Notes: generated by a model from the letters alone, not told the origin. Counted from the stretch's first letter, positions 4,529 through 29,772 are shown. The stretch is 64,000 nt of DNA from Candidatus Eiseniibacteriota bacterium (GCA_031370785.1 JANMQY010000079.1:19901-83900), one strand, 5' to 3'. Program-made: numbers and translations.

Positions 4529-4530
4529 CC

Positions 4531-5679: not shown

Positions 5680-5816
5680 ACGATCACTCCCTGACTGTTG
5701 GGAAGTCGAAGTCCCGCTGGTGTTTCCGGGAGCCGCAAAGGTGTCCGTGGAGGCATTCATTCGGGTGCCCGCATAGTAGTTTCTGGCCCTTACCCCTGCA
5801 AGCCCAGATTCACTGC

Positions 5817-5857
5817 TTCTAACCTATTGTATTTCAATAAGAAAGAAGCTAGTAACC
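5817..5857. promoter_or_regulatory. AT-rich block, candidate DNA-unwinding element of oriC
   Basis: TTCTAACCTATTGTATTTCAATAAGAAAGAAGCTAGTAACC. This is by eye the most AT-rich ~40 bp in the window. It lies in the dnaA-dnaN spacer next to DnaA-box-like 9-mers. Confidence 0.5.
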
Positions 5858-5865
5858 GTAGGGCC

Positions 5866-6028
5866 TGTGGAGTTTGTGAAAGGACCCGTATTTCGGGTCC
5901 TAAATGGGTCCTGGCTAATGGGATGGAAGTTCGTACCGAAATGTGGAGAACCTTCGCTGATTCCACATTCCGGTACGGGTCGCGCGGGAAGCTCAAAACT
6001 TTCCCCAAGCGTCCACCGGTTTTCCACA
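5866..6028. promoter_or_regulatory. DnaA-box cluster 1 (dnaA-dnaN spacer)
   Basis: TGTGGAGTT 5866-5874, TGTGGAGAA 5942-5950, GATTCCACA 5959-5967, TTTTCCACA 6020-6028. All carry the TCCACA/TGTGGA core and have 1-3 mismatches to TTATCCACA. Confidence 0.6.
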
Positions 6029-6030
6029 GC

Positions 6031-7416: not shown

Positions 7417-7445
7417 TTCAACGGTCCTTGCTGAAAGGTCGCGAA

Positions 7446-7668
7446 CTTTCCACAGGGTTCGAGGCTGCGGGAACGCGTTTCTGCCGCGGCCCCGGGCCCG
7501 GTGGGGGAGTTCGTTGTGGAAATCGAGCGGGCGAGTTATCAACATTGAGTGGAAAGACGCCATCTGTTCACATGGCTTGTGGTTAGGTGCTGCCCTGCCT
7601 CCTCTCGTCCACACTGATTCCACAAAGCCGGCGAACGCCGTCGGCGACGGAGCTGGAAGGGCTCCACA
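7446..7668. promoter_or_regulatory. DnaA-box cluster 2 (upstream of dnaA)
   Basis: CTTTCCACA 7446-7454, TGTGGAAAT 7515-7523, TTATCAACA 7536-7544, TGTGGTTAG 7578-7586, TCGTCCACA 7605-7613, GATTCCACA 7616-7624, GGCTCCACA 7660-7668. Confidence 0.6.
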
Positions 7669-7907
7669 GGGCGCGTGGGGGCGCCGTGCAAGACATTGCT
7701 ATCAAATTGGTTGTAGGTGAGCGCCAGAACCATCTCGGAAGGCCGCAGAGAGGCCTTCTTCCAAGAGTCGAGGAGGCTAGCACCCGCCCCGGGACCCTAC
7801 AAGCCGCATTTTGGGATGGCGGCTCATGGCATAACATATTGAGAAACAGCGTCTTGCGCCTATGCCCCGGGGCTGCCCGGACGTTCACATCGGCCCTGTC
7901 CCGGCCG

Positions 7908-13258: not shown

Positions 13259-13957
13259 ATGCACGATGTTGTGATGGTCATCGAGGACGAGAAGGAGATC
13301 CGCGATCTCATCCGCTACAACCTCGAGCGTGCGGGATTCCGGGTCGTCACGGCGCCCAATGGCGAGGAAGGGCTCGAGCGGGTGTTCGCTTCGAGACCCG
13401 ACGCGCTGGTGCTCGACCTGATGCTGCCCGGACGCAGCGGTCTCGACGTGCTGCGCGAAGTGCGCGGCGAGATCGCGACCCGTGACCTGCCGGTGGTGCT
13501 GCTCACGGCGCGCGGCGCCGAAATGGACAAGCTGCTGGGCTTCGAACACGGCGCCGACGACTACCTGACCAAGCCGTTCAGTCCGCGCGAGCTGATCGCA
13601 CGATTGCATGCCCTGCTGCGGCGCGCCCGGCCGGTGTCCGCCGAGAACGTGATCGAGATCGGGGAGCTGCGCGTGGACCCGCTCGCCCGCGAGGCGACGT
13701 TTGCGGGGCGCGCGCTCACACTCACGCCGCGCGAATTCGACCTGCTCGCCTACCTTGCGAGTCACCCGGGAAGGGTGCAGTCGCGCGAAGAGCTGCTGCG
13801 CAAGGTCTGGGGCTACGACTTCGTCGGTGAGACGCGCACGGTCGACGTGCACGTGCGCCGGCTCCGCGCCAAGATCGGCGAGAAGCATCGCGTGATCGAG
13901 ACCATGACCGGCGCCGGGTACAAGTTCGTCGGCGGGGCGAAGCGCGACTCGCGCTGA
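13259..13957 (+). CDS. phoB: OmpR/PhoB-family response regulator
   Basis: Receiver domain (VMVIEDEKEI...LVLDLMLPG...DDYLTKPFSPREL) plus a winged-helix C-terminus (LTPREFDLLAYL...TVDVHVRRLRAKI). The symbol is assigned from context with phoR, pstSCAB and phoU. Confidence 0.85.
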   Translation: MHDVVMVIEDEKEIRDLIRYNLERAGFRVVTAPNGEEGLERVFASRPDALVLDLMLPGRSGLDVLREVRGEIATRDLPVVLLTARGAEMDKLLGFEHGADDYLTKPFSPRELIARLHALLRRARPVSAENVIEIGELRVDPLAREATFAGRALTLTPREFDLLAYLASHPGRVQSREELLRKVWGYDFVGETRTVDVHVRRLRAKIGEKHRVIETMTGAGYKFVGGAKRDSR

Positions 13958-13978: not shown

Positions 13979-15745
13979 ATGACACTGGGCCTGCGCGAGA
14001 GACTGTTCGGTGGATTCGCGCTGGTGCTGGCGGCGACCCTGGCGCTGGTCGCCCTGATGACCGCGCACGAACAGGAGCGCTGGCTGCAGGCGCGCACCCG
14101 CGAGACGCTCGAGCGCTCGGCGCGACTGGTGCTGCGCGAGATCGCACACGCTCCTGAAGCCGCGGCCGGCAACTGGCCGGCGTTCGCCGCGGAGATGGGC
14201 GATGTGCTCCAGTGCCGGGTCACCCTGATCGCGGGCGACGGTCGCGTGCTCGGCGACAGCGAGGTCGCGGCCGACCGGATCGCGGCGCTCGACAATCACT
14301 CCGGCCGCCCCGAGGTGCGCGCGGCGCTGGCTGGCCGGGTCGGCTGGGCGGTGCGCCACAGCCGGACTCTTGGGCTCGATCTCATGTACGTGGCGGTGCC
14401 CGCGGCGGCCGGCGGGCTCGGCGTGGTGCGCACCTCGGAGCCGCTGACCGTGCTCGCCGCGCTGCGCACCTCGCTCCAGCGCGCCACCATGCTGGCGCTT
14501 CTCGTCGCGCTCGCTCTCGGACTCGTGCTGGTGTACGGCGTCGCGGCCTGGCAGGCGGCGCGCGTGCGCTCGCTCCAGGCAATCGCCGCGCGCATTGGCG
14601 CTGGCGAGTCGGGCGCGCGCGCGCTGGAGCGCCCGCTCGACGAGCTGGGTCGGCTGGGGCGGACGCTGAATCAGATGGCGACCGACCTCTCGGCGCGGCT
14701 CGAGACGCTTTCGCGGGAGCGCGACGAGCGCGAGCACATCCTCGCCCACATGAGCGAAGGTGTTGCGCTGATCGACGCCGGGGGCCGGATCGTGCGCGCC
14801 AACCAGCGGCTTGCCGAGCTGCTGGATCAGACGTTCGTCGAGATCGGCCGGCCGTTCCGGGAATTCGCGCGCGTTCCCGAGCTGGCGGAAGTGCTGGAGG
14901 TCGCACGTCGCGATGGCGTGGTGGTGGAACGCGAGCTGAGGCTGTGGACGAGGGGTCTGCGCACGGTGCGCGCCAGCGCGACGCCGCTCGACGGACCCGA
15001 GGGGCGCGCGATTCTGCTCGTGCTCCACGATCTGAGCGAGGCCGAGAGGCTGAACCGCGTGCGCCAGGATTTCGTGGCGAACGTCTCGCACGAGCTGCGC
15101 ACGCCGCTCACCTCGGTGCGAGGTTACGCCGAGACGCTGCTCGACGGCGGGCTGGACGACCTCGAGCACCGTGAAGGCTTCGTGCGCATCATCCGCGATC
15201 AGACCGAGCGCCTGCAGGCGCTGGTGGACGACCTGCTTTCACTTTCCGAGCTGGAACGGCCCGGGGCCGAGCTGCGCGTTTCGCACTTCGACCTGTGGGA
15301 GCCGGTGGAGCGCCAGGTGGCGGCATTCCGGGATCGCGCGGTGCGCGCGCATCTCGCGCTGAGCGTGGAGCGGGGCCCGGCGGTCGAAGTGACCGCGGAT
15401 CGGGCCCGGCTCGAGCAGGTGGTGGCGAACCTGCTCGACAACGCCATCAAGTACACCGAGCGGGGCGGTGTGCGGGTCAGGGTCGGTGGCGACGCGCTGA
15501 GCGCGTGGTGCGAGGTCGAGGACACCGGCGCTGGGATTCCATTCGAGGATCAGGGACGCGTGTTCGAGCGGTTCTATCGCGTCGACAAGGCGCGCTCGCG
15601 GGACAAGGGTGGCACCGGGCTCGGACTTTCGATCGTGAAGCACATCGTCAGCCTGCACGGGGGAGAGGTCTCGCTCGAGAGCGCCCCGGGCAAGGGCAGT
15701 ACCTTTCGCTTCGAGATTCCGCGCCTCGCGCTCGCCGAGGACTGA
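13979..15745 (+). CDS. phoR: sensor histidine kinase, PhoR-like
   Basis: N-terminal TM segments, HAMP/PAS-like region, H-box FVANVSHELRTPLTSVRGYAETL, and an HATPase with DTGAGIP and GGTGLGLSIVKH. Confidence 0.85.
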   Translation: MTLGLRERLFGGFALVLAATLALVALMTAHEQERWLQARTRETLERSARLVLREIAHAPEAAAGNWPAFAAEMGDVLQCRVTLIAGDGRVLGDSEVAADRIAALDNHSGRPEVRAALAGRVGWAVRHSRTLGLDLMYVAVPAAAGGLGVVRTSEPLTVLAALRTSLQRATMLALLVALALGLVLVYGVAAWQAARVRSLQAIAARIGAGESGARALERPLDELGRLGRTLNQMATDLSARLETLSRERDEREHILAHMSEGVALIDAGGRIVRANQRLAELLDQTFVEIGRPFREFARVPELAEVLEVARRDGVVVERELRLWTRGLRTVRASATPLDGPEGRAILLVLHDLSEAERLNRVRQDFVANVSHELRTPLTSVRGYAETLLDGGLDDLEHREGFVRIIRDQTERLQALVDDLLSLSELERPGAELRVSHFDLWEPVERQVAAFRDRAVRAHLALSVERGPAVEVTADRARLEQVVANLLDNAIKYTERGGVRVRVGGDALSAWCEVEDTGAGIPFEDQGRVFERFYRVDKARSRDKGGTGLGLSIVKHIVSLHGGEVSLESAPGKGSTFRFEIPRLALAED

Positions 15746-15841
15746 GCCGACAGCGCGCCACGCCTGCCTCGCAGTCACTGCCATTCTCCAGCCGCGGCGC
15801 CCCTGCCCGTACTTCCGCCGCCGGCGCTTGCCCTCCTGCGT

Positions 15842-15899
15842 GAATTGCGGGGAGCCGGATCGGGTCCGGCGAACCCCTTCGGCGAGTGCCCCGCAATTC
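15842..15899. repeat. 58-nt nested palindromic element
   Basis: Perfect 11-bp outer stem GAATTGCGGGG (15842-15852) / CCCCGCAATTC (15889-15899). It encloses an inner hairpin GCCGGA-TCGGG-TCCGGC and a short CGAA-CCCC-TTCG stem. It lies about 100 nt after the phoR stop in a 454-nt non-coding gap. Confidence 0.5.
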
Positions 15900-16199
15900 C
15901 GGATCTCCGACTTGCGGATCGAACGCGGCTCCGGCGGACCGCGCCCTCGAGAACGCTTCGAACGCGCCCGAAGCCTGCGCGATTCTCGAAATACCCATGC
16001 CCGCCTAACATGCGGGCGGACATGCGGTTCGGGCCGCGCGCCACGAGCCGTGTTTCCTCTCTCAATTCGGCAATGTTAGCGTTGATGCCCCGCGGCACCC
16101 CCTGCGTGGCGTCGTTGCTCCGCGGCGGCGTGACGCGGTGCGGCATTCGCCCGCGACCTGGCACCGCCCCATCAGATACTTGAAAGCGATCAGTTCCTC

Positions 16200-16718
16200 A
16201 TGCGTCTCATCCTGTTCAGGCACGGCCCCGCGGGCAGCTCCGATGCCGCACGCTGGCCCGACGACCGCGAACGTCCGCTCTCCTCGCGCGGCGAGGAGCG
16301 TACGCACGCCGCGGCGCTCGGTCTCGGCGAGATCGAGCGCGAGATCACCCGCATCCTGACGAGTCCGCTGCGCCGTGCGCTCGGGACCGGCGCGATCCTG
16401 CGCGAGGTGCTCGACCTCGACCGTGAGCTCGAGCTTCACGCCGATCTGGCGCCCGGCGGCTCGACGCGTCGGCTGCTCGAATCGTTCGCGGAGTCCACCG
16501 ACGAAGAGAGCGTGGTTCTGGTCGGGCACGAGCCCGACCTCGGCAAGCTCGCCGGCACGCTGCTCTTTGGCGCTCCGGCGCATCTGCCGCTCAAGAAGGC
16601 GGGCGGCTGCGCCATCGGCTTCGAGGGCGCCCCGCGTGCGGGAGAAGGGCAGCTGCTGTGGTTCCTGCCCCCGCGTGCGCTTCGCCGGCTGGCGCGCAAG
16701 CAAAGGATGCACGCGTGA
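16200..16718 (+). CDS. sixA: phosphohistidine phosphatase SixA-like (histidine phosphatase superfamily)
   Basis: MRLILFRHGPAG (RHG catalytic motif), LSSRGEE and VLVGHEPDLG. Size is about 170 aa. Confidence 0.75.
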   Translation: MRLILFRHGPAGSSDAARWPDDRERPLSSRGEERTHAAALGLGEIEREITRILTSPLRRALGTGAILREVLDLDRELELHADLAPGGSTRRLLESFAESTDEESVVLVGHEPDLGKLAGTLLFGAPAHLPLKKAGGCAIGFEGAPRAGEGQLLWFLPPRALRRLARKQRMHA

Positions 16719-16723
16719 ACTCG

Positions 16724-17425
16724 ATGCCGGACACCTACGGCGCCAACCGGACGCAGTATCCCGGCCGGTTGTTCATCGTCGAAGGCATCGACGGCTCGGG
16801 CAAGAGCACGCAGCTCACCCTGCTCGCGCAGTGGCTGCGCGGCCAGGGCTACCCGGTGGTGTTCAGCGAGTGGAACTCCTCGCTGATCGTGAAGGCGACC
16901 ACCTCGCGCGCCAAGAAGCGCCGGCTGCTCACGCCGCTGACCTTCTCCCTGATCCACGCCACCGACTTCTCGGACCGGGTGGAGCGCGAGATCGTGCCCA
17001 CGCTCAAGGCGGGCGCGGTCGTGCTCGCCGACCGCTACGTGTACACCGCGTTCGCGCGCGACGTGGTGCGCGGGGTGGACCCACGCTGGGTGCGTTCGCT
17101 CTACCGGTTCGCGGTGGTGCCGACGCGCGCGTTCTACTTCCGCGTGCCGCTCGAGATCGCGCTGCGCCGCATCCTCATGTCGCGTCCCAAGCTCAAGTAC
17201 TACGAGGCGGGCATGGACCTGGGCCTGCACCCGGATCCGCGCGAGTCGTACCGCCGATTCCAGACCCGCATCCTCGACCAGTACGAGACCCTGGTCGATG
17301 AATTCGGCCTCAGCGTGATGGACGCGACCGAACCGGTCGAGATCCAGCAGCGCCGCCTGCGCCGCGAGATCCTGCCACTGCTCGCGGGGCTGCCCCGTTC
17401 GGGAGACGTCCATGCGATCCTTTGA
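16724..17425 (+). CDS. thymidylate-kinase-like P-loop kinase, paralogue 1
   Basis: RLFIVEGIDGSGKSTQL (Tmk-type Walker A) and ADRYVYTAFA (DRY motif). An alternative GTG start at 16715 overlaps the sixA stop. Confidence 0.7.
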   Translation: MPDTYGANRTQYPGRLFIVEGIDGSGKSTQLTLLAQWLRGQGYPVVFSEWNSSLIVKATTSRAKKRRLLTPLTFSLIHATDFSDRVEREIVPTLKAGAVVLADRYVYTAFARDVVRGVDPRWVRSLYRFAVVPTRAFYFRVPLEIALRRILMSRPKLKYYEAGMDLGLHPDPRESYRRFQTRILDQYETLVDEFGLSVMDATEPVEIQQRRLRREILPLLAGLPRSGDVHAIL

Positions 17426-18119
17426 GAGTTACGGCGTCCCGATTCCGGCGGTGGATCCTGCCGAGCTCACCGGCTGGCTGGTCGTGATCGAGGGGACCGA
17501 TGGAGTGGGGCGCACCACGCACGTCAATCACCTGCGCGCCCATCTCGAACGCCAGGGCTACGCCGTGGCCGAGTCCGGATTCACGCGATCCGACGTCGCG
17601 AGCCGCGGCATCCGCCGCGCCAAGCAGGGCAACACGCTCGGCTCCAACGCGTACAATCTGTTCTACGCGACCGATTTTGCGGACCGGCTCGAACGTCAGA
17701 TCATTCCCGCACTTCGCGCCGGGTTCGTCATGCTGACCGACCGATACGTCTATTCGCTCATCGCGCGCGCCATCGTGCGCGGGGCGGATCCGGACTGGAT
17801 CAAGCAGGTCTACTCGTTCTCGCTCCAGCCCGATGCGGTGTTCTACCTGCGCATCGCGGTGCCCGACCTGGTGCCGCGCATCGTTTCCAACGGCGGCTTC
17901 GACTACTGGGAGTCGGGCATGGACCTGCCCATGGGCGAGGACATCTACGACTCCTTCATCAACTATCAGAAGCGCGTGATCGAGGAGCTGGACGGGCTGT
18001 CGCGTGACTACGGATTCCAGACCATCGACGCCACCCGGCGAGAGGACGACATCGCCGAGGAGCTGGCGGCCCGCGTCTCGACTCTGCTGGAAGCCGACAT
18101 TCCTCCAGTCGTCGAGTGA
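17412..18119 (+). CDS. thymidylate-kinase-like paralogue 2 with degenerate P-loop (Lys to Arg)
   Basis: WLVVIEGTDGVGRTTHV (GxxGxGRT) and TDRYVYSLIA. It shares the unusual YYEAGMDLG / DYWESGMDLP segment with paralogue 1. GGGAGA RBS, and a 14-nt overlap with paralogue 1. Confidence 0.65.
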   Translation: MRSFESYGVPIPAVDPAELTGWLVVIEGTDGVGRTTHVNHLRAHLERQGYAVAESGFTRSDVASRGIRRAKQGNTLGSNAYNLFYATDFADRLERQIIPALRAGFVMLTDRYVYSLIARAIVRGADPDWIKQVYSFSLQPDAVFYLRIAVPDLVPRIVSNGGFDYWESGMDLPMGEDIYDSFINYQKRVIEELDGLSRDYGFQTIDATRREDDIAEELAARVSTLLEADIPPVVE

Positions 18120-19177
18120 TCGCGCTGGCTTCTGAAGACACCGGCGCTCCCGGCGCTGGCGCTCCCGACACGCCGGACGCCGACGCTCGCGAGCCGCTGG
18201 CCCTGAGGCTCCGCCGTCTCACCGAAGCGCTCCTCATTGCCGCGCGTGGGCTGCGCGCGCACGACACCGAGGCGGCGCACGATGCGCGTGTCGCCGCACG
18301 CAGGCTCGAGTCCGCGCTTTCGCTGTGGCGATCGGTGCTGCGTCACAGCCCCGCCGATCGCGCCCGCCGCGAACTGCGCCGCAAGCGTCGCGCGCTGTCC
18401 CGGGTCCGCGATCTGGAAGTCCACCTTGCCGAGCTTCGCCCGATGCTGCGCCCGCTCGCCGCGGATGATGCGCGTATTGCGCGCTGGCTCGAGCGGCTCG
18501 AGCGCCGGACGGTGCGCGCCCGCGAGGTCGCGACGCGACGGGTGAGCCCGGCGCGGGTGAGGCGCGTGCAGAAGTGGATCGAGGCTGCCGCCGAGAATGC
18601 CGCGGAGGAGACGGCGCTCGATGCGGTGCGCGAGCGGCTTGCCGGGCGCGAGAAGGAATTCCGGGAACACGCGGCGCATGCGCTCGAATCCCCCGAGCCC
18701 GCGCGGCTTCACGCCGCGAGGATCGCCGCCAAGAAGCTGCGCTACGCGCTGGAGAGCGCGCAGAGTCCCGCTATGCCGTCGGACCAGCCTCGCGACGAGG
18801 TCGCGGAACTCCGCGCGGTCCAGCGGGCGCTGGGAGATGTCCAGGACGCTTCGACGCTGACCCGGCGGCTGACCCGGCGCCTGCGTCGCTGGCACGCACG
18901 CGGTCATGCGTCGACGGCTTCACGAGTCGAGCCCCTGCTCGAGCCGCTGGCGGCGCGGAGCGCGCGGGCCGTCGAGAAGGTGCTGCCGAAGATCCGTGCG
19001 ATTCTCGAGCGGGCTTCGCGGCATGTTCCAGCACCACCCGCACCCGCCCCTTCACCAGGCGCTCGAGAAGCCCGGTCCGGCGTCGCGCCGCCCACAGCTC
19101 CAGCTGCGCCTCGCGTCGGGCGGATACAACGATCGATACGGTCGCGTCGCGTCGCACCACCCGCATCGAGCGGATGA
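18116..19177 (+). CDS. CHAD domain protein
   Basis: Repeated helical His/Arg motifs AHDARVAARRLESALSLWR and LHAARIAAKKLRYALESAQ. The GTG start overlaps the paralogue-2 stop (GTGA). The last ~50 codons are Pro/Ala/Arg low-complexity and are antisense to ppx. Confidence 0.7.
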   Translation: MIALASEDTGAPGAGAPDTPDADAREPLALRLRRLTEALLIAARGLRAHDTEAAHDARVAARRLESALSLWRSVLRHSPADRARRELRRKRRALSRVRDLEVHLAELRPMLRPLAADDARIARWLERLERRTVRAREVATRRVSPARVRRVQKWIEAAAENAAEETALDAVRERLAGREKEFREHAAHALESPEPARLHAARIAAKKLRYALESAQSPAMPSDQPRDEVAELRAVQRALGDVQDASTLTRRLTRRLRRWHARGHASTASRVEPLLEPLAARSARAVEKVLPKIRAILERASRHVPAPPAPAPSPGAREARSGVAPPTAPAAPRVGRIQRSIRSRRVAPPASSG

Positions 19178-20555
19178 GCTGATAGTGACTGCGCTCGAGG
19201 CCCTCGGCGATGCGCAGGATCGCGGAGAGCCAGAGCACGACGCGCCGCTGACTCTTGTCCAGCGCCTTGTACTCCGGGTCGCGCTTTCGCGGGCGACCTT
19301 TGCCGTGATAGCGCGTCACCAGCGCCACCTGCACGATCTCCGCGGCAGAGAGCCCGCGCAGATTTCCGTTCTTGACCACGTAGCCCGAGTGCTCGTGGTG
19401 GCCGTCGTAGCCGATCGCCGAGCCGATGTCGTGGAGCAGCGCCGCGAAGTGCAGCAGCTCGCGCGCCTCGGCATCCAGCCTGTGCCTGGAGCGCAGCGCA
19501 TCGAACAGCGTGAGCGCGAGGGTCGCGACGTGACGCGGGTGCGCCCCGTCCGCGTTGAATTTCGCGAGCAGCAGGTAGACGCTGCGCAGCCGAAGGTCGT
19601 CGACTGTCTCCAGCTTCGAGATCTCCTTCGCGTGGTAGACCAGATGGTCGGTGACCAGTCCCTCGCGCACGCCGAAGTCCGACAGCGTGATCCCGTCGAG
19701 GCCGAGCATGGAGAGCAGCTCGTGCAGAACGGTGGCCCCGGCCAGCAGGATCTCGGCGCGTGCCGCATCGATCGCCGGCAGGTGCTCGCGCTCGGTCTGA
19801 TCCATGCGCTGCAATCGCGCCACCAGACGCTCGAGCCCCTCGGCGGCGAGGAAGTGCCCGTTCAGCTGCTCCAGGGGCACGCCGGTCTGGCTCCACGCCA
19901 CGGTCTGTGCCAGTGCGTGGATCGAGCCTGACGATCCGTACGCGCGGGTGATCTTGTAGGGCTCGAGCTCGCGCAAGGCCGGGCGCAGCTTGCGCCGCAC
20001 GTGGCGGCGAAGCCGTGCGACGTCGCGGCGGGTCGGCGGATCCCTGGGGACCATCAGCTCGGTGAGGCGCAGCGCGCCGAGTGGAACGCTGGCGGCGTGT
20101 GAAAGGCGCTCGCGGTTTCCCACCACCAGCTGGGCGCTGCCGCCGCCGATGTCCACGATCAGCGCGGGCGCCTCCTCCAGCTGGAGGGCGCTCTTGACCG
20201 CGAGATAGATGAGGCGCCCCTCTTCATCTCCGGGGATGACGCGGGGCGAGATCCCGCTCGCCTCGCGCGCCGCGCTCAGGAACTCGCCGCCGTTGCGGGC
20301 CTCGCGCACCGCGGCCGTGGCGGTGCACAGGATGCGGTCCACCTGATGCCGGCGCGCGAGGCGCACGAAGCGGGTGAGCGCGTCCACGGTGCGGCGGATC
20401 GCCGCACGGCGCAGCCGTCCGGCGGCGAACGAGCCGCGACCGATCTGCACCACTTCCCGCTCGCGATCGATCACGTCGAACGAGGCACCGCCTCGCGACT
20501 GCGCGATCACCATGTGAATCGAGTTGGTGCCGATGTCGATTGCAGCGATGCGCAT
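18771..20555 (-). CDS. ppx: exopolyphosphatase / guanosine pentaphosphate phosphohydrolase with HD domain
   Basis: MRIAAIDIGTNSIHMVIA...IVDIGGGSAQLV (ASKHA fold) followed by an HD region HPRHVATLAL...LLHDIGSAI. The recognisable domains end near VVLEH (~19020). The remaining ~80 codons are a low-complexity tail antisense to the CHAD gene. Confidence 0.88.
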   Translation of the reverse strand: MRIAAIDIGTNSIHMVIAQSRGGASFDVIDREREVVQIGRGSFAAGRLRRAAIRRTVDALTRFVRLARRHQVDRILCTATAAVREARNGGEFLSAAREASGISPRVIPGDEEGRLIYLAVKSALQLEEAPALIVDIGGGSAQLVVGNRERLSHAASVPLGALRLTELMVPRDPPTRRDVARLRRHVRRKLRPALRELEPYKITRAYGSSGSIHALAQTVAWSQTGVPLEQLNGHFLAAEGLERLVARLQRMDQTEREHLPAIDAARAEILLAGATVLHELLSMLGLDGITLSDFGVREGLVTDHLVYHAKEISKLETVDDLRLRSVYLLLAKFNADGAHPRHVATLALTLFDALRSRHRLDAEARELLHFAALLHDIGSAIGYDGHHEHSGYVVKNGNLRGLSAAEIVQVALVTRYHGKGRPRKRDPEYKALDKSQRRVVLWLSAILRIAEGLERSHYQLIRSMRVVRRDATVSIVVSARREAQLELWAARRRTGLLERLVKGRVRVVLEHAAKPARESHGSSAAPSRRPARSAPPAARAGARLVKPSTHDRVRASDAGAGSAAGSASKRPGHLPAPAGPRGVPRPRREAGPTA

Positions 20556-20958: not shown

Positions 20959-21651
20959 CTAAGCGCGACCGAAGTCGTCGCCGGCTTCGGTTTGCTCTTC
21001 GGCGTGGTGCTTGATCACCCGTGCCTCGGCGATGAACACCACTTCTTCGGCGATGTTGGTGGCGAGGTCGGCGACACGCTCCAGGTTGCGCGCGACCAGG
21101 ATCAGCTCCATCGCCCGGGTGATGGTGGTCGGATTCTCCACCATGAAACTGAGCAGCTCGCGGAAGACCTGATCGTTCAGACTGTCGACCACGTCGTCGG
21201 CGCGGCACAGGCGCCGCGCGCTCACGGCATCCTGGCGCACGAACGCGTCGAGCGACTCGCGCAGCATCCCGTTCGCGAGCTCGGCCATTCGCGGGATGTC
21301 CACCAGCGGCTTGAGCAGGGGCTGTCCGGCCAGCCGCATCACGCTTCCGGCGATATTCACCGCATGGTCGCCGACCCGCTCCAGGTCGTTGTTGATCTTG
21401 AGCGCGGCGGTGATGAAGCGCAGGTCGCGCGCCATCGGCTGCTGGAGCGCGAGCAGGCGCAGGCAGCGCTCGTCGATGTCGAGCTCCATGCGATCGATGA
21501 TCTTGTCGTCGGCGAAGACCTCGCGAGCCAGGGTCTCATCCAGACGGCGCAGCGCGTCGATCGACTTGAGCACGATGCTCTCGGAGTGTCCGCCCATGAG
21601 CAGCAGCTGCTGCTTGAGCTGCTCCAGCTCGCGTTCGAAATGCCTTTCCAC
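20959..21651 (-). CDS. phoU: phosphate signalling complex protein PhoU
   Basis: GTG start with a GGAGAA RBS. (V)ERHFERELEQLKQQLLLMGG...DDKIIDRMELDIDERCLRLLALQQPMARDLRFI...ARNLERVADLATNIAE, i.e. two PhoU repeats. The 481-aa ORF-track model is an artefactual extension into pstB. Confidence 0.92.
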   Translation of the reverse strand: MERHFERELEQLKQQLLLMGGHSESIVLKSIDALRRLDETLAREVFADDKIIDRMELDIDERCLRLLALQQPMARDLRFITAALKINNDLERVGDHAVNIAGSVMRLAGQPLLKPLVDIPRMAELANGMLRESLDAFVRQDAVSARRLCRADDVVDSLNDQVFRELLSFMVENPTTITRAMELILVARNLERVADLATNIAEEVVFIAEARVIKHHAEEQTEAGDDFGRA

Positions 21652-21683
21652 GTGTGTTCTCCGCCCCGGTTTGGCGCCGGCGC

Positions 21684-22547
21684 TCAGCCGAAGCGCCCGG
21701 TGATGTATTCCTCGGTGAGCTTCTGGCGCGGGCGCGTGAACAGCTCCCGCGTATTGCCCACCTCGATCAGCTCTCCCGACAGCATGAACGCGGTCCGATC
21801 CGAGATGCGCGCGGCCTGCTGCATGTTGTGGGTCACGACCACGATCGTGTAGCGCGATTTGAGATCCAGCACCAGCTCTTCGATGCGTGCGGTTGCGGTC
21901 GGGTCGAGCGCGGAGGCCGGCTCGTCCATCAGCAGGACCTCGGGCTCGACCGCGAGCGCGCGCGCGATGCACATGCGCTGCTGCTGCCCGCCCGACAGCT
22001 GGAGCGCGGAGCGGCCGAGCCGGTCGCGCACCTCGTCCCACAGCGCCGCGCGGCGCAGGCTGTTCTCGACGTGCGACTCGAGCTCGCCACGGTCGCGAAT
22101 CCCGAGCAGCCGAAGTCCGAAGGCCACGTTGTCGAAGATGCTTCGCGGAAAGGGATTGGGGCGCTGGAACACCATGCCGACGCGACGCCTGAGCTCGACC
22201 GTGTCGGTCGATGGTGCGTAGACATCGATCTCGGACACCCGGATCTCGCCCGTGACGCGCACGCTGGGAATCAGATCGTTCATCCGGTTGAATGCGCGCA
22301 GCAGCGTACTCTTGCCGCATCCCGACGGGCCGATGATCGCGGTGACCCCCCGCTCCGGAACGTCGAGGGATACCGACTTGAGCGCCTGGTGGTTTCCGTA
22401 CCACAGGTTGAAGTCGCGCGTGCAGATGCGCGGCTCCACGACGCGCCCGCTCTCGGCATCGCGCGCCGGGTCCGGGTTGCGAGGCGCGGATCCGGCGGCG
22501 ATCTCCGGAAGGATCGTCCGGATCGTGGGAGGAGCTTCCAGAGACAC
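21684..22547 (-). CDS. pstB: phosphate ABC transporter ATP-binding protein
   Basis: [71 protein letters not shown] and [13 protein letters not shown]. The GTG start is 2 nt after the pstA stop. Confidence 0.95.
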
Positions 22548-22549
22548 CC

Positions 22550-23434
22550 CTAGTTTCTCCCGGGCAATCGCCGCAAGGTCAGTCGCAGGATGCCGGACAT
22601 CAACGTGACGAGCAGGAGCAGCACGAGCGCTCCGGTCCAGGCCTGGCGGTTCCAGTCCTCGTAGGGCGCCTTGGCGTAATCGTAGATCATGACGGGAAGC
22701 GAGGCGATTGGCTGGTCCAGGCGAATCGACCAGAACCGGTTGCCGAGCGCGGTGAACAGCAGCGGCGCGGTCTCCCCGGCGGCGCGCGACAGCGCGAGCA
22801 GGCTCGCGGTCACGATGCCGGCCGAGGCCGACGGGATCACCACCGACTGGATCGCGCGCCAGCGCGGCGCTCCCAGCGCGAGCGCGGCCTCGGTGTAGGA
22901 GCGCGGCACGAGGCGCACCACTTCCTCGGTCGAGCGCACGATGGTCGGCAGCATCAGGATGGCGAGCGCGACGCCGCCAGCCAGGGCCGAGAACCGGCCC
23001 ATCGGCAGCACCACCAGCCCGTAGGCCGCGACCCCGACCACGATCGACGGCACGCCGGCGAGAACATCGGCGGTGTAGCGCACGATCATTCCCAGTCGGC
23101 CTCCGCCATACGTCGCGAGCCACACGCCGGCGCCGACTCCGACCGGCACCGCGATCAGGCCGCCGAGCCCGGTCACGATCAGCGTCCCGATGATCGCGTT
23201 GGCCATGCCGCCGCCCGGCTCTCCGACCGGCTTGGGCAGATTGAAGAAGAACGAAGGGCGAAGCGCAGGCAGACCCTTCGCGAGCAGGTGCCACACGATG
23301 AAGGCGAGCGGCAGCACCACCAGCGCGGCCGCGATCCAGCACGCCGCAAGGAGCGAGGCGTTGTGAATCAGCCGCAACCTCGAGGGGCCGCGCCCGGCCG
23401 AACGGGCCAGCGCGTCAGGCCGTGCCGGCGACAT
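22550..23434 (-). CDS. pstA: phosphate ABC transporter permease PstA
   Basis: 294 aa, polytopic, with an EAA-loop region ([22 protein letters not shown]). Position is canonical between pstC and pstB. Confidence 0.9.
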
Positions 23435-24410
23435 CGCGTCTTCCTCCGGTCGCGAGGTGGACGAGCAGGCGCGCCCCGGCGTTGACCACCAGCGTCAGCG
23501 CGAACAGCACCAGCGCCACCTCGATCAGCGCGGAAAGGTAGAGAGCGCCGGTCGCCTCGGTGAACTCGTTGGCGATCACGCTCGCCATGGTCGAGCCGGG
23601 CGCGAGCAACGAGGCCGAGATGCGATTGGTGTTCCCGATCACCATGGTCACCGCCATGGTTTCCCCGAGCGCGCGCCCGAGCGCAAGGATCACCGCGCCG
23701 AGGATTCCCGGCCTCGCGGCGTCGACCGCGACCGCGATCGCCTCGGCGCGGGTCGAGCCGAGCGCCAGCGCCGCTTCACGCAGCGAACGCGGCGTCGCGA
23801 GCAGGATCTCTCGCGAGATCGAGACCACCGTCGGCAGCACCATGATGGCGAGCACGATGCCCGCGTTGAGAACGCCGATGCCGAAGGGGGGACCCGTGAA
23901 CAGCGGCATGAACCCGAGGTGCTGGATCAGCCACGGCTCGACGGCGGTGCGCAGGACGGGCGCGAGCACGAACAGTCCCCACAGCCCGTACACGATGCTC
24001 GGGATCGAGGCGAGCAGATCGACCACGAACGCGACGGCTTCGCCGACCCGGGGCGGCGCCAGCTCGGAGAGGAACACCGCGGCCCCGATCCCGAGCGGCA
24101 CCGCGAGCAGCATCGCGATCGCCGAGGTCACCAGCGTGCCGTACACGTAGGGCAGCGCGCCGAACTTCTCCGCGACCGGATCCCAGGTGGTGGAGGTGAA
24201 GAACTGCCACCCGAAGGTGCGCAACGAGAGCTGCGCGCCCCGAGTGGACTCGAACACGATCAGCGCGGCGACCAGGAACACGAACAGGGCGCACGCGCCG
24301 AGCAGCCCCTGGTATGCGGTGTCGGCATGTGCCCAGGGCTTCGCCCGTGCGATCGGTCGGGTGAGCACCGGCAGATGGCTCGCGCCGGCCGTTCCGGTTC
24401 GGGAGGTCAC
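23415..24410 (-). CDS. pstC: phosphate ABC transporter permease PstC
   Basis: 331 aa, with FFTSTTWDPVAEKFGALPYVYGTLVTS and REAALALGSTRAEAI. It overlaps pstA by 20 nt. Confidence 0.9.
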   Translation of the reverse strand: MTSRTGTAGASHLPVLTRPIARAKPWAHADTAYQGLLGACALFVFLVAALIVFESTRGAQLSLRTFGWQFFTSTTWDPVAEKFGALPYVYGTLVTSAIAMLLAVPLGIGAAVFLSELAPPRVGEAVAFVVDLLASIPSIVYGLWGLFVLAPVLRTAVEPWLIQHLGFMPLFTGPPFGIGVLNAGIVLAIMVLPTVVSISREILLATPRSLREAALALGSTRAEAIAVAVDAARPGILGAVILALGRALGETMAVTMVIGNTNRISASLLAPGSTMASVIANEFTEATGALYLSALIEVALVLFALTLVVNAGARLLVHLATGGRRDVAGTA

Positions 24411-24426
24411 CGGCTGTCCCGGGCGC

Positions 24427-25488
24427 TCACTGCAGCACCGGCCTGCCGTTCGCGGTCAGCTTGAGCAGGTTCGCATCGTTGATCTTGATCACCGCCTCGG
24501 GCAGCCGGGCGTAGTCCAGCGCCTCGGCCATGCTCTGTCCGTCGTGCATCGCCCAGCGGATGAATTCCGCGAGCGTGCGCGCTTTCTTCCCGTCCTTCAG
24601 GTCCCTGTAGACGAGCAGATAGGTGAGCCCCGCGATGGGGTAGGCGTCCGGGCTCGCCGAGTTCACGATTGGTGCGCGTACGTCCTTCGCAAGCGCCGCC
24701 TCCGCGCCGGCGACGGCCGCGGTGGTCGAAGCCAGCGAGGGTTCGACGAACTTGCCCGCCTTGTTGCGCAGCGCCGCGATCGGAAGCTGGTTCTGCTTCG
24801 CATACGCCAGCTCCACGTAGCCGATCGCGCCCGGAGATTGCCGTATCAGGCCGGCCACGCCCTCGTTGCCCTTGCCGCCGACACCGGCCGGCCAGCTCAC
24901 CGAGGTGTTGGCGCCGACCAGCTCCTTCCACTCGGTGCTGACCGACGAGAGGTAGGTGGTGAAGATGTTCGTCGTGCCGCTGCCATCCGACCGGTGCACA
25001 GGCAGGATCGGCACCGGAGGCAGCGCGACGCCGGGGTTGGCGGCGGCGATCGCCTTGTCGTTCCACACCGTGATCCGGCCGAGAGAGATTCCGGTCAGGG
25101 CCTCGGGCGTGAGCTGGAGCCGGCCCTTGAAGTCGGGAAGGTTGTAGGCGATCGCGACCGCCCCGGCGACGGTCGGGAAATGGATGATCGGGCGCGGCAG
25201 CTCGCGGAGCCGATCGTCCGAGAGCGCCGCGTCGCTGGCCCCGAAATCGACGGTGCCGGCCTTCACCTGCTGGATGCCCGCGCCGCTGCCGATCGACTGA
25301 TAGTTGATGCCCACCCCGGTCTTCTTCTGGTACGTGTCGAACCACTTCGAGTAGATGGGATAGGGAAAGGTCGCGCCTGCCCCGGTCAGATTCTGCGCCC
25401 GCGCACAACTGGCCGGACCGAGCGCCGCCAGCGCCAGGCCGAGGAGCGCCGCGACTCCGGTCACCTGTCGCTTCAATGTGCTTCTCAT
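24427..25488 (-). CDS. pstS: phosphate-binding protein PstS
   Basis: The start is trimmed to ATG 25488 (MRSTLKRQVTGVAALLGLALAALGPASCARA signal peptide). Contains GAGATFPYPIYSKWFDTYQKKTGVGINYQSIGSGAGI and FGASDAALS. Confidence 0.93.
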   Translation of the reverse strand: MRSTLKRQVTGVAALLGLALAALGPASCARAQNLTGAGATFPYPIYSKWFDTYQKKTGVGINYQSIGSGAGIQQVKAGTVDFGASDAALSDDRLRELPRPIIHFPTVAGAVAIAYNLPDFKGRLQLTPEALTGISLGRITVWNDKAIAAANPGVALPPVPILPVHRSDGSGTTNIFTTYLSSVSTEWKELVGANTSVSWPAGVGGKGNEGVAGLIRQSPGAIGYVELAYAKQNQLPIAALRNKAGKFVEPSLASTTAAVAGAEAALAKDVRAPIVNSASPDAYPIAGLTYLLVYRDLKDGKKARTLAEFIRWAMHDGQSMAEALDYARLPEAVIKINDANLLKLTANGRPVLQ

Positions 25489-25511: not shown

Positions 25512-26717
25512 TCACGACTGCGGCCTGCTGAACCGGTAGAACAGAGTGATGCGGGCCTGCAGGTCGTGGTGAGCGGGGGCGACCGCCGTGCCCTTCGCCA
25601 GATACTGAGTGGCCTCGACGTTGGGAATGACGTGGACGTCCTTGAACGGCTGCCAGTCGACACCCGCGATCCACAGCTGCGAATCCACGCGATTGCTCGC
25701 GCGACGATTTGGAATCCACTGGTCGAAGCGCGCCAGCAGCACGACCGTGGAGCTTAACGTCGCGCGGGCAAAACACGAGTACCCGCGCGGCTCCTCGGTC
25801 GGGGCCGGACCCTTTCGATTCAGCCGGTCGAGCGCCTCGAAACCGATCGCGACGCGCCTGAATTCATATCCCGCGAAGATCTTCCAGGTGGTCTGGTCGT
25901 TGTTGATCGCCGCGCTCTCGGGCTGGACCGGCTGCGCTCGGTCGAGGTTCACCCGCACGCCCTGATAGTCCGCGTACGGCTCGATGCGCAGAGCGCCCAC
26001 ACGCAGCGGCAGCGCGAAGTAGAGCTTCTTGAACCGATCGGTCTCCGGTTTCTGGCCGGTGCCATCGCCGATCGCGGCGATGTAGCCGACATGGTGATCC
26101 GGGTCGGCGAATCCCTTGAGCTCGAGGGCGAGGTCGGTCGCATTGCCGATCGAGCGGAAGTCGCCAATCGTCTTCTCGACCGCGCGGTATTGCCAGAAAT
26201 CCTCGGAGTTCTCCCACGTTGGAGTGACGATCATGCCGACGTACAGATCGGTGCGCGGCAGGACGCCCTTGGCCTGAAGGTAGGCCGAGCGCAGGGCGAC
26301 TCCGATCTTTCCGTCCGAGGTCAGGGACTTGCTGTCGGCTTCGAGTCGAAAGCGCGTGGCGAGGCGGACCGAAAGATCGTTGTCGAGCTGGAAGTAGACG
26401 CGGCGGATCTGAACGCCGTTCAATCCCTGGGTGATCGGTTTCTTTCCGTCGATGTTGGTCTGACCCAGGTCCGCGCCGTTCACGTCGTAGACGTGGCTGG
26501 GGTCACCGGAGAGATTGCCGTAGAGGTCACCGAACACCAGGCCGCTGATCCGTCCGCGCGGGAAGTCGGGGGGGGTCTGCGGAACCACGATCGCGATCGG
26601 GATCGGCGGCGGGGTCGAGGCGCTATCCGGCGAGGTCGAGCCGGTCGCGGACATCTGTGCGGAGCAGGGGACCGCAACGGTCAGCGCTGCGGCAATGAAC
26701 CAGGCGCGTCCTGTCAT
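25512..26717 (-). CDS. outer-membrane porin, putatively phosphate-selective (by context)
   Basis: The start is trimmed to ATG 26717 (AAGGAG RBS). Signal peptide MTGRAWFIAAALTVAVPCSA. About 400 aa with beta-rich composition. It sits directly upstream of pstS in the same orientation, with a Pho-box-like repeat in its promoter region. The family assignment is not verifiable by eye. Confidence 0.55.
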   Translation of the reverse strand: MTGRAWFIAAALTVAVPCSAQMSATGSTSPDSASTPPPIPIAIVVPQTPPDFPRGRISGLVFGDLYGNLSGDPSHVYDVNGADLGQTNIDGKKPITQGLNGVQIRRVYFQLDNDLSVRLATRFRLEADSKSLTSDGKIGVALRSAYLQAKGVLPRTDLYVGMIVTPTWENSEDFWQYRAVEKTIGDFRSIGNATDLALELKGFADPDHHVGYIAAIGDGTGQKPETDRFKKLYFALPLRVGALRIEPYADYQGVRVNLDRAQPVQPESAAINNDQTTWKIFAGYEFRRVAIGFEALDRLNRKGPAPTEEPRGYSCFARATLSSTVVLLARFDQWIPNRRASNRVDSQLWIAGVDWQPFKDVHVIPNVEATQYLAKGTAVAPAHHDLQARITLFYRFSRPQS

Positions 26718-26790
26718 GGCGCTCCTTTCGGGATGGAGTGTCGCTGCAACTGGAGTTTCGAGGGGTTCCACTTCGGCCGCCGCATGTCCC

Positions 26791-26830
26791 GGTAAAAGAA
26801 CACGGCGGGAGTTACGGCAGCGTTACGGCC
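26791..26830 (-). promoter_or_regulatory. phased triple direct repeat, Pho-box candidate A (promoter of porin-pst operon)
   Basis: The minus strand reads GGCCGTAACGCTGCCGTAACTCCCGCCGTGTTCTTTTACC. CGT units start at 26827, 26816 and 26804 (spacing 11 and 12 nt). The element lies 75-115 nt upstream of the porin ATG. Confidence 0.5.
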
Positions 26831-27555: not shown

Positions 27556-29772
27556 GTGGCCCGGATCTTCGCGATTGCCGTTTTTGGAGCACTCACGCTG
27601 TTCGGTAGCCCACGCGCGGGTAATCGCATCTGGACGGGCGTCGCGCCGCGGGCCCGGAGCATCGAGGCAATCGCGCGCGATCCTCTGAACCCTTCTCGCA
27701 TGTGGGTCGCCTCGTTCGGAGCCGGCGTGTACCGGTCGCTGGACGGGGGGGTGACCTGGAAGGCATATCGCTCGGGCCTGATCAACACCTTCGTGCGCTG
27801 TCTCGCAGTTCAGCCCCTGCATCCGGATTCGGTTCTGTGCGGCACTAACGACGGCGTGTTCCTCAGCGTGGACGGTGGCGTGACGTGGAAGGCTCTGCTC
27901 TCGACGACTCGATCGGTGCGCTCGCTCGCCATTCATCCGGTGCGGACCGGCGTCGTCTATGCGGCGCTGTACGGCGGCGGCGTCTACAAGTCGCTGAACG
28001 CGGGCGCGAGCTGGAGCGCGATCAACCTGGGCCTGGTCAACACCAACGTGCGTGACATCGCGATCTATCCGACGCGGCCCGAGACCCTGCTGGCTGCGAC
28101 CGGGACCGGCGGCGGAATTCATCGGAGCTTCAACGGTGGCTTGAGCTGGGCCCAGGTGCCGGACACTACGGCAACTCGGGGCGCGGCGGAGCAGGTGCAG
28201 TTCGACGCGCTCGACCCCTCGCGAATCTATGTCGCCGAGCTGGACCGCGGCGTGCTGCGCAGCACCGACGGCGGCACCAACTGGGGGCGCATCAACGGTG
28301 GCCTGTCGTCGTTCCGGGGACGATCGCTGGCGGTGGTGGACACGCTGCGCTGGTTCGGCACCGACGGCGCCGGCGTTTTCGTGACCTCGCTCAACGATAC
28401 GATGTGGCACCCCGTCGACATCGGGCCGACCGGCCGGGTCGTGGATGCGCTGTGGTCCTCGGCCGCGGAACCGTCCACCGCCCTCGCGGGTACTGACGGA
28501 GACGGGATGTTCCTCACTTCCGACCGCGGAGCGTCGTGGATCCCGGTAGACGGCGGCCTGATGTCCACTCAGGCGTTTTCACTCGCGGTGCGCCCATCCA
28601 CTCATGTCGTCTATGCCGGCACCGGCTTCGGCGATCAGTTCTGGCGGAGCGCGGACGTCGGCGCGTCGTGGACGCGCGCCACGCGATTGGTCACGAACAA
28701 TTCGGAACATGGTGTCGCACCGGATCCGCTGCTGGCCGGTCGAGTGTATCTGTCGGCGTATGGCTCGGGGGTGTACCGCAGTGATGACGATGGCGCGACC
28801 TGGCTGAATCCCGACAGCCTGAACGCAACGCTCACCAACCGGTTCGTCCGCCCGCTGCTGGTCTGGCCGGGCCAGAGCGAGCACCTGTTCGTCGGCACCG
28901 GCATCGGACCATTCGAGAGCACGGACGGAGGCGCGCAATGGGCTTCACGCGTCGGGAACCTGCCGGCGGGCTTCGGCGTGCACTCAATGGCGCTGGTGCC
29001 GGGGGTGCCGGCCACGTTGTATGTGGGGAACGACAGCGCCGGCGTCTACCGCTCGAACGATGGCGGCACGACCTGGAATCAAAAATCGGCCGGGCTGCTC
29101 TCGCCATTCGTTCGCGCCATCGTAGTGGACGCCGTCGATCCGCTCCGGGTATACGTCGCGACCGACTCGGGAGTATTTCGCAGCGTCGATGGGGGTAACG
29201 CGTGGGTCGCGGCGCGCGCCGGGCTCCCCGCGGGGCTGGTGGTGCGGGCGCTGGTGCAGGATCCGGCGCACGGAGCGCTATTCTGCGGCGTCTATGGAGG
29301 CGGAGTGTTCGAGAGCGTCGATGGTGCCGGCACCTGGCTGCCGGTCTTCGGGCAGCAGGGGCTCAGTGATCTGCACGTACGCGCGCTTGCGGTGGACACC
29401 GGCCAGCGCGCCCTCTATGCCGGCACCGAGAACGGTGTCGCCTCGGTGACCTTCTACGACGCCCTCGACGTGCCGCGGCCGGTTGCGGGATCCAGGCTTA
29501 GCCTTTCGGCCTCGCCCAACCCTTCGTCCGGGTCCGGACCCGAGCTGCGCTTCGCAATGGCACGTGCCGGCTCCGCGCAGCTTTCGATCTACGACACGGC
29601 CGGGCGCCGGGTGCGGGTGCTCGCCGACGCGTGGCTCGAAGCCGGGGAGCACGAGGCGCGCTGGGACGGCCGGGACGCCCGCGGCTTTCCCGCGCCGGCC
29701 GGTCTCTATTTCGCGCGGCTGGTCGTACCCGACGGAGTCCGTGTCGTGCGTCTCGCGCGCCTCATGAGGTGA
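27556..29772 (+). CDS. secreted BNR/Asp-box repeat protein with FlgD-Ig/T9SS-like C-terminal domain
   Basis: GTG 27556 gives the signal peptide (V)ARIFAIAVFGALTLFGSPRA. There are at least 12 SxDxGxTW-type repeats (SLDGGVTWKA, SVDGGVTWKAL, STDGGTNWGRI, SNDGGTTWNQK, and others). The C-terminus is LSASPNPSSGSGPELRFAMARAGSAQLSIYDTAGRRVRVL...GLYFARL. The ORF-track start 27322 adds a non-protein-like extension. Confidence 0.75.
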   Translation: MARIFAIAVFGALTLFGSPRAGNRIWTGVAPRARSIEAIARDPLNPSRMWVASFGAGVYRSLDGGVTWKAYRSGLINTFVRCLAVQPLHPDSVLCGTNDGVFLSVDGGVTWKALLSTTRSVRSLAIHPVRTGVVYAALYGGGVYKSLNAGASWSAINLGLVNTNVRDIAIYPTRPETLLAATGTGGGIHRSFNGGLSWAQVPDTTATRGAAEQVQFDALDPSRIYVAELDRGVLRSTDGGTNWGRINGGLSSFRGRSLAVVDTLRWFGTDGAGVFVTSLNDTMWHPVDIGPTGRVVDALWSSAAEPSTALAGTDGDGMFLTSDRGASWIPVDGGLMSTQAFSLAVRPSTHVVYAGTGFGDQFWRSADVGASWTRATRLVTNNSEHGVAPDPLLAGRVYLSAYGSGVYRSDDDGATWLNPDSLNATLTNRFVRPLLVWPGQSEHLFVGTGIGPFESTDGGAQWASRVGNLPAGFGVHSMALVPGVPATLYVGNDSAGVYRSNDGGTTWNQKSAGLLSPFVRAIVVDAVDPLRVYVATDSGVFRSVDGGNAWVAARAGLPAGLVVRALVQDPAHGALFCGVYGGGVFESVDGAGTWLPVFGQQGLSDLHVRALAVDTGQRALYAGTENGVASVTFYDALDVPRPVAGSRLSLSASPNPSSGSGPELRFAMARAGSAQLSIYDTAGRRVRVLADAWLEAGEHEARWDGRDARGFPAPAGLYFARLVVPDGVRVVRLARLMR

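Follow-up and report, generated by a model that had tools for sequence, protein, structure and literature searches.

A 64-kb stretch of DNA from a Candidatus Eiseniibacteriota bacterium, called the window below, contains two overlapping genes for proteins related to thymidylate kinase (Tmk). A gene for a SixA-family histidine phosphatase precedes them, a gene for a CHAD-domain protein follows, and the whole group lies among genes for phosphate uptake. What are two Tmk-like proteins doing in such company, and are they dTMP kinases at all? An earlier note, made from the sequence alone, regarded the four genes as an unassigned module. The module already has a name, however: it was described as polyphosphate kinase 3 (PPK3) in a 2024 preprint (10.1101/2024.08.28.610084) and then by Hofmann et al. 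(J Biol Chem 2026; PMC12995831). We conclude, with a probability of about 0.85, that the pair in the window consists of the catalytic and regulatory subunits of a PPK3, derived from Tmk and placed within a Pho-regulon cluster. The homology of the two proteins, their typing as subunits, the conservation of their motifs, and the order of the genes and its conservation are documented here. The enzyme activity of the pair, its lack of dTMP kinase activity and its stoichiometry are taken from the literature on orthologues and would hold by analogy.

PPK3 was defined from one archaeal enzyme. In Sulfolobus acidocaldarius the operon runs sixA-ppx-saci_2019-saci_2020-CHAD. The catalytic subunit Saci_2019 (cPPK3) forms polyphosphate (polyP) from ATP, and ATP from ADP and polyP; its complex with Saci_2020 (rPPK3) strongly favors ATP formation from ADP and polyP. 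Saci_2020 alone is inactive, yielding only traces of ADP, and stimulates Saci_2019 in an alpha2beta2 complex. Its inactivity was ascribed to replacement of the arginine in DRX. dTMP kinase activity was absent from both proteins and belongs to Saci_0893. STK_15430 of Sulfurisphaera tokodaii is a homologue of cPPK3; it had been called a dTMP kinase earlier, on no other evidence than the formation of ADP. The same paper already lists bacterial homologues in neighborhoods with SixA, CHAD, PPX and Pst, and gives the bacterial occurrence of PPK3 as 'a few bacteria' (all from PMC12995831).

In the window, sixA, the two Tmk-like genes and the CHAD gene lie on the plus strand and are linked by overlaps of 4, 14 and 4 nucleotides; the listing of open reading frames (ORFs) and the sequence itself bear out the chain that the earlier note had drawn. 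sixA occupies 16200-16718, counted like all coordinates here from the start of the window. Its product scores 86.2 bits against TIGR00249 (cutoff 74.5 bits), matches Pfam His_Phos_1 and carries the RHG motif at residues 7-9. The stop codon of sixA (TGA, 16716-16718) shares a GTGA overlap with an in-frame GTG at 16715, 7 nucleotides after an AAGGA at 16703-16707. This GTG is the start of paralogue 1 (16715-17425) chosen by public gene callers (236 residues; P0001, L082), the alternative being an ATG at 16724. The stop of paralogue 1 (17423-17425) lies beyond the ATG of paralogue 2 (17412-18119), giving the 14-nucleotide overlap, and a GGGAG is found 6 nucleotides upstream of that ATG. A second GTGA joins the stop of paralogue 2 (18117-18119) to the GTG start of the CHAD gene at 18116. 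The CHAD protein (18116-19177; Pfam CHAD, 109 bits, residues 32-252) ends in a low-complexity tail rich in proline and alanine. CHAD proteins form a family associated with polyP granules, to which they bind. Pfam thus reads across the module as His_Phos_1, Thymidylate_kin twice, and CHAD. The chained arrangement and the relationships among its parts go far beyond what chance would produce.

The two Tmk-like proteins share 39% identity across 189 residues (E=2e-48), and their translations contain all of the motifs read from the DNA beforehand: VEGIDGSGKST, LADRYVYT and YYEAGMDLG in paralogue 1; IEGTDGVGRTT, LTDRYVYS and DYWESGMDLP in paralogue 2. Which relatives are the nearest? Paralogue 1 matches STK_15430 (ST1543; PDB 2plr/5h70) with E=3.7e-56 and 49% identity, whereas its matches to canonical Tmk structures are, every one, 1e-15 or weaker. 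Paralogue 2 matches STK_15430 with E=3.7e-35. A model of paralogue 2 made with AlphaFold2 (AF2) has a pLDDT of 87.7 and the Tmk fold; its best Foldseek match is again ST1543, with a target-normalized TM-score of 0.89-0.90 and E of about 1e-17, compared with about 1e-11 for canonical Tmks. The comparison with Tmk and PPK2 by profile and structure, proposed in the earlier note, places ST1543 nearest, ahead of canonical Tmk, and returns no PPK2 among the top 50 Foldseek matches.

The assignment to subunits comes from two hidden Markov models (HMMs), one for the catalytic (c-type) and one for the regulatory (r-type) proteins, built from 80 bacterial or thaumarchaeal pairs that include those of the window. 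The S. acidocaldarius proteins sort cleanly on these models: Saci_2019 scores 270 bits as c-type and 195 as r-type, Saci_2020 134 as r-type and 93 as c-type. (Saci_2020 was aligned directly from the S. acidocaldarius reference locus, L081.) Because models made from bacteria and thaumarchaea type the Sulfolobus subunits correctly, the split into c and r predates the spread between bacteria and archaea. Paralogue 1 of the window scores 362.5 bits as c-type against 221.1 as r-type, and paralogue 2 scores 340.4 as r-type against 190.1 as c-type, values that are not independent, both proteins being members of the HMM alignments. The earlier idea of a heteromeric pair of active kinase and pseudokinase in polyP or Pho metabolism is matched both by this typing and by the biochemistry of Saci_2019 and Saci_2020. 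The window has a catalytic subunit that groups with cPPK3, an r-type paralogue adjacent to it, and a neighborhood of ppx, sixA and CHAD. It very probably encodes a bacterial PPK3, and the earlier idea of the pair had already been established for the family by the archaeal work. What we add is modest: the wide spread of the enzyme among bacteria, and a lesion in the regulatory subunit that appears to be a Lys-to-Arg change in Walker A and not loss of the DRX arginine.

How strongly are the two subunits constrained? We aligned 81 c-type and 80 r-type sequences, derived from genomes at the best 80 loci described below and including the window proteins. Among the c-type sequences, GSGKST, DRY, R154 (81/81) and K158 (79/81) are invariant or nearly so. 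The same is true of K64, R85, R112, R116, R149 and R213, which together with R154 and K158 make eight basic positions, defined here as sequence positions only; all eight are basic in Saci_2019 and STK_15430 as well, the latter having a lysine at 154. The window cPPK3, Saci_2019 and STK_15430 also share GIDGSGKS, LTPLTFSLIHATDF, DRY and EAGxD. The last of these belongs to an E-x-G-x-D segment found in both subunits: E161, G163 and D165 occur in at least 80 of the 81 c-type sequences, and E167, G169 and D171 in 79 of the 80 r-type. HMMER alignments to most of the best-matching canonical Tmk structures end near residue 150, before this segment. YYEAGMDLG and DYWESGMDLP, which the earlier note did not associate with housekeeping Tmk, contain E-x-G-x-D, a signature of the PPK3 family.

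The pair is widely conserved. A scan of 185,579 species genomes gave at least 600 matches, and the best 80 loci, with 53-77% identity to the window cPPK3, were used for all locus counts. Exactly one c and one r gene are present in 79 of these 80, and in 76 the r gene comes immediately after the c gene. For linkage to other genes we took the 47 loci that extend 4 kb or more in both directions and set a distance limit of 4 kb: ppx is present in 31 of them, CHAD in 22 and sixA in 21, and 34 have one or more of these genes. Conservation of the tandem pair and of its link to CHAD, ppx and sixA, which the earlier note had singled out as a check, is therefore seen both in adjacency (76/80) and in partners (34/47). 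Three Planctomycetota loci (L040, L051, L052) have the order rPPK3-(CHAD)-ppx-cPPK3, with the subunits about 2.5 kb apart; in L040 CHAD as well as ppx lies between them. The only one of the 80 with a c-type but no r-type gene is L061, a 5.9-kb contig of a Thermoproteota metagenome-assembled genome, despite 1.7 kb of sequence downstream.

Among bacteria PPK3 occurs far more widely than 'a few' suggests. The best 80 loci span about 14 bacterial phyla plus Nitrososphaerota: Eisenbacteria (75-77% identity), Acidobacteriota, Chloroflexota, Planctomycetota, Verrucomicrobiota, Nitrospirota, Bacteroidota, Actinomycetota, Armatimonadota, Desulfobacterota, Binatia, Dormibacterota, Omnitrophota, Zipacnadia and the Nitrososphaerota archaea. 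Thousands of c-type and r-type subunits in JGI and NCBI records go by the name of 'dTMP kinase' or 'thymidylate kinase', and release 20 of NCBIfam has no model specific to PPK3.

Some relatives carry both subunits in a single chain. P0363 (460 residues) is a natural fusion of c-type and r-type. In P0383, P0407 and P0410 (650-696 residues) a c-type domain is joined to a degenerate r-type one and to domain III/HD of Ppx-GppA, which makes each in effect a single-chain PPK3 with the C-terminal HD domain of Ppx/GppA-type enzymes. In P0472, P0493 and P0504 a Tmk-like domain is joined to DUF2252 or APH domains. The natural c-r fusions, with or without the Ppx-GppA domain III/HD, lend independent support to the partnership of c with r and to the link with polyP. 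Together with the translational coupling of the two genes, they argue indirectly for a c/r heteromer.

What disables the regulatory subunit? In the window rPPK3 the Walker-A lysine is replaced by arginine (R34) and DRY is intact, so that the loss of the DRX arginine reported for PPK3 is not found here. Saci_2020 has the reverse pattern: SSGKTT, with the Walker-A lysine retained, and DGY. The window protein is the typical one. Among the 80 r-type sequences G28, D30, G33 and R34 are invariant, T36 is found in 78, D110-R111-Y112 in at least 79, and R111 by itself in 79. A wider set of 86 diverse r-type domains, taken from cluster representatives at 50% identity, has arginine at the Walker-A lysine position in 67 cases, cysteine in 9, lysine in 5 and other residues in 5; the DRX arginine is retained in 81. 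Since that arginine is kept in 79/80 and 81/86, its loss is specific to rPPK3 of the Sulfolobus type and does not define the family. Judged from these alignments, a P-loop with Arg in place of Lys marks the regulatory subunit across the family, and the widespread lesion is replacement of the Walker-A lysine by arginine (or cysteine). On this one point our analysis goes beyond that of Hofmann et al. (PMC12995831).

A second difference lies in the LID. At the sites corresponding to R154 and K158, the basic residues of the cPPK3 LID, rPPK3 conserves no basic residue: position 160 varies, and an aspartate, D164, is found in 68 of 80. Because the Walker-A lysine is replaced and the LID basic residues are missing, the window rPPK3 is predicted to be non-catalytic. 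The r-type proteins with cysteine at the Walker-A lysine (G-x-G-C-[ST]-T; 9/86, for example P0395, P0403, P0409, P0459, P0467, P0486, P0499 and P0500) keep DRY, or NRY in P0403, and may represent a distinct rPPK3 subclade.

The same conservation can be read in another way, in which both subunits are functional and the Arg-substituted P-loop is an adaptation and not decay. On this account rPPK3 binds ATP or ADP, or the end of a polyP chain, or is weakly catalytic, and so sets the direction or rate of cPPK3. Walker-A Lys-to-Arg variants of P-loop NTPases often still bind nucleotide. A P-loop held this strictly across so many phyla, a DRY motif that is nearly universal, and a confident model that retains the Tmk fold speak for such a protein; the strict conservation of the Arg P-loop leaves room for binding of a phosphate ligand by rPPK3. 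Saci_2020 alone, however, shows neither PPK nor dTMP kinase activity and gives only traces of ADP, and the LID basic residues invariant in cPPK3 are not conserved in rPPK3. We consider this account possible but rather doubtful. A version of it may tentatively be put forward, one that we would not bet on: that rPPK3 of bacteria and thaumarchaea is a conserved ligand-sensing subunit which, without turnover of its own, gates the choice of cPPK3 between storage and release of phosphate and energy. Were that so, the explanation by loss of the DRX arginine would be a peculiarity of the Sulfolobales, and PPK3 would rank as a major polyP kinase among bacteria of soil and sediment, many Acidobacteriota and Chloroflexota included, and no longer as an archaeal enzyme that also occurs in 'a few bacteria'. 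The conserved Lys-to-Arg P-loop of the regulatory subunit also gives the control of the enzyme a concrete point at which it can be tested.

Could the two proteins be dTMP kinases after all, housekeeping or duplicated, that ended up in a phosphate cluster by chance? Names favor this: both proteins score above the 27-bit cutoff of Pfam Thymidylate_kin (PF02223), with 71.8 and 69.2 bits, their homologues are called dTMP kinases by JGI and NCBI, and STK_15430 was deposited and published as one. Yet against TIGR00041, the dTMP kinase equivalog, paralogue 1 scores 73.9 bits and paralogue 2 71.0, both under the cutoff of 83.25, and the pair is far nearer to cPPK3 than to any canonical Tmk; on these two grounds we rejected canonical Tmk as its identity. 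HMMER aligns the canonical FSADR of T. thermophilus Tmk with an invariant IHATD, in which neither the Phe nor the Arg is kept. Paralogue 2 has no Walker-A lysine, the pairing and the polyP gene context are conserved, Saci_2019 and Saci_2020 lack dTMP kinase activity, and the earlier study of STK_15430 followed only the formation of ADP. A dTMP kinase is thus highly improbable, in keeping with the view of the earlier note that the pair is probably not the housekeeping enzyme. An HMM scan of all six-frame ORFs found no third Tmk-like gene in the 64-kb window. The housekeeping tmk of genomes that carry PPK3 is to be sought elsewhere than at the PPK3 genes.

Still less probable, and rejected here, is a PPK2-like polyP:NMP/NDP phosphotransferase, from the family that the earlier note had cited as sharing the Tmk-like fold. 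The two families catalyze analogous reactions and both belong to the P-loop kinases, and in the fused relative P0383 a stretch of 44 residues that surrounds the P-loop matches PPK2 marginally (22.2 bits; cutoff 22.3). But neither window protein matches PF03976 (E<=0.01), Foldseek lists Tmk structures and no PPK2 in all 50 top places for the rPPK3 model, and the published comparison of PPK3 with F. tularensis PPK2 found a higher root-mean-square deviation and swapped sites for ADP and polyP (PMC12995831). Pfam scans of plausible ORFs detected no PPK1 or PPK2 domain anywhere in the window.

How might the PPK3 of the window work? By homology to Saci_2019 and STK_15430, cPPK3 would hold ATP or ADP at its P-loop, in the usual nucleotide site of Tmk, and the end of a polyP chain would occupy the former dTMP site. 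The reaction would be ATP + polyP(n) <-> ADP + polyP(n+1), reversible, with the ATP-forming direction kinetically favored in Sulfolobus. The second substrate is then polyP itself, and not the (d)NMP acceptors proposed before. Translationally coupled to cPPK3, rPPK3 would assemble with it, as in the alpha2beta2 complex of Sulfolobus, and raise its activity without catalyzing transfer. SixA and CHAD are co-translated with the pair, and we infer their roles: CHAD would localize to polyP granules. Ppx would hydrolyze polyP.

The surroundings of the operon concern phosphate throughout. Upstream on the same strand are a phoB-type response regulator (13259-13957; Pfam Response_reg and Trans_reg_C) and, directly after it, a phoR-type sensor histidine kinase (13979-15745; HAMP-PAS-HisKA-HATPase by Pfam). 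A phoB/phoR pair also adjoins the c/r pair in several related loci (L013, L018, L048, L070, L079). The other strand carries pstS, pstC, pstA, pstB, phoU and ppx, which extend from about 25488 to 18771 and converge on CHAD. ORF translations place pstB, pstA (22550-23434), pstC (23415-24410) and pstS (about 24427-25488) within 21684-25488; pstS was identified by PBP_like_2, and the four encode the high-affinity phosphate ABC transporter. phoU is placed at 20959-21660 with an approximate start, in an ORF (20959-22404) that contains two PhoU domains. ppx (18771-20555) encodes a long-form exopolyphosphatase, with Ppx-GppA and domain III/HD by Pfam and NCBIfam. Homologues of pstA, pstB, pstC and phoU were found in the related loci by tblastn. 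Since the operon follows phoBR and converges on pstSCAB-phoU-ppx, the 13-kb block may be seen as one unit for phosphate uptake and for storage and release of polyP. Its position between these two sets of genes suggests that it is probably under Pho control.

Where CHAD and ppx converge, their ORFs share 407 nucleotides (18771-19177). Conserved homology ends near CHAD residue 290 (about nucleotide 18986) and near Ppx residue 512 (about 19019), and the antisense part of each is only a non-conserved, low-complexity C-terminal tail rich in Pro, Ala and Arg. The 82-residue tail of Ppx is not conserved among its relatives, and L001, the closest relative, has no such overlap. A 436-residue ORF on the minus strand (25515-26822), without a Pfam match, ends about 25 nucleotides before the start of pstS; it may encode a phosphate porin or another member of the Pho regulon. 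Farther off, dnaA, dnaN, gyrB and gyrA lie on the minus strand in 1-7698, placing the PPK3/Pho cluster within about 8 kb of a probable replication-origin region; candidate DnaA boxes near dnaA (5942, 6020, 7536 and 9454) are not above chance. The regions 29502-31395 (plus strand) and 47557-51000 (minus strand) hold a Mur-ligase-like (CapB-type) gene and a CapC capsule-biosynthesis gene, which suggests poly-gamma-glutamate synthesis, and two adjoining outer-membrane paralogues with OmpA and thrombospondin type 3 repeats.

Between phoR and sixA lies a spacer of 454 nucleotides (15746-16199), which is unusually long and presumably contains the promoter region of the sixA-cPPK3-rPPK3-CHAD operon. 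It includes a perfect 11-nucleotide inverted repeat (15842-15852 and 15889-15899). We rejected a riboswitch or other structured RNA here: the inverted repeat folds no better than shuffled sequences (z=-0.07), and Rfam has no match anywhere in the window. Scans for sigma-70 promoters and terminators stayed at background, and no regulatory site can be claimed.

Several points weigh against a PPK3 within a Pho-regulon cluster. No Pho box was found in the spacer: the direct repeat ACATGCGG, at 16008 and 16020 and nowhere else in the window, was rejected as one, its single occurrence being expected by chance. Two metatranscriptome runs, searched for transcripts, gave only cross-matches of 30-45 nucleotides from other organisms and were uninformative. 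Linkage to ppx, CHAD and sixA is frequent and not universal, all three being present in 14 of the 47 loci. The explanation by DRX loss does not apply to the window rPPK3, whose predicted inactivity has to be carried by the Lys-to-Arg change and the missing LID basic residues. Finally, the activity is carried over from archaeal orthologues with which c and r share 49% and 28% identity, respectively.

If the identification is right, the same two-subunit enzyme is present in many uncultured bacteria, often inside a Pho/pst cluster. Correcting the annotation would change inferences about which environmental bacteria make and use polyP, with a bearing on phosphorus cycling, enhanced phosphorus removal and biocatalysis with ATP regeneration.

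How does the window pair compare with systems already known? With canonical Tmk (EC 2.7.4.9) it shares the fold, the architecture of P-loop, DRY and LID, and the match to PF02223. It differs in falling under the TIGR00041 cutoff, in the apparently replaced motifs of the dTMP site, in the PPK3-specific E-x-G-x-D segment of the LID, and in forming a c/r pair in a polyP context whose orthologues lack dTMP kinase activity. A class II two-domain PPK2, P. aeruginosa PA3455, resembles it in combining an active P-loop module with a degenerate paralogous module that serves oligomerization and activation (PMC12995831). In PA3455, however, an N-terminal domain without activity and a C-terminal one that is active form one chain, whereas the modules here are separate polypeptides; PPK2 is another P-loop kinase family, and SaPPK3, the S. 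acidocaldarius enzyme, prefers ADP and not AMP as acceptor.

The closest known system is SaPPK3 itself. Its host is a thermoacidophilic archaeon and that of the window a bacterium, probably a member of Candidatus Eisenbacteria living in freshwater sediment; SaPPK3 has been characterized biochemically, whereas the window locus, inside a phoBR/pst cluster, is known from its genes alone. The gene order also differs: sixA-c-r-CHAD in the window, with ppx convergent behind pstSCAB-phoU, and sixA-ppx-c-r-CHAD in Sulfolobus. The window Ppx is a long form with domain III/HD (594 residues, compared with 411), and the two rPPK3 proteins, 28% identical, have GVGRTT with DRY in the window and SSGKTT with DGY in Saci_2020. 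In both systems, nonetheless, a c-type and an r-type paralogue derived from Tmk stand side by side, are translationally coupled and have sixA, CHAD and ppx as partners; at the S. acidocaldarius locus sixA (3292-3768 of L081) belongs to the operon and CHAD (6243-6863) follows rPPK3. The structural counterpart is ST1543 (PDB 2plr, 4nzy, 4rzx and 5h70), on which the model of the window rPPK3 superposes best.

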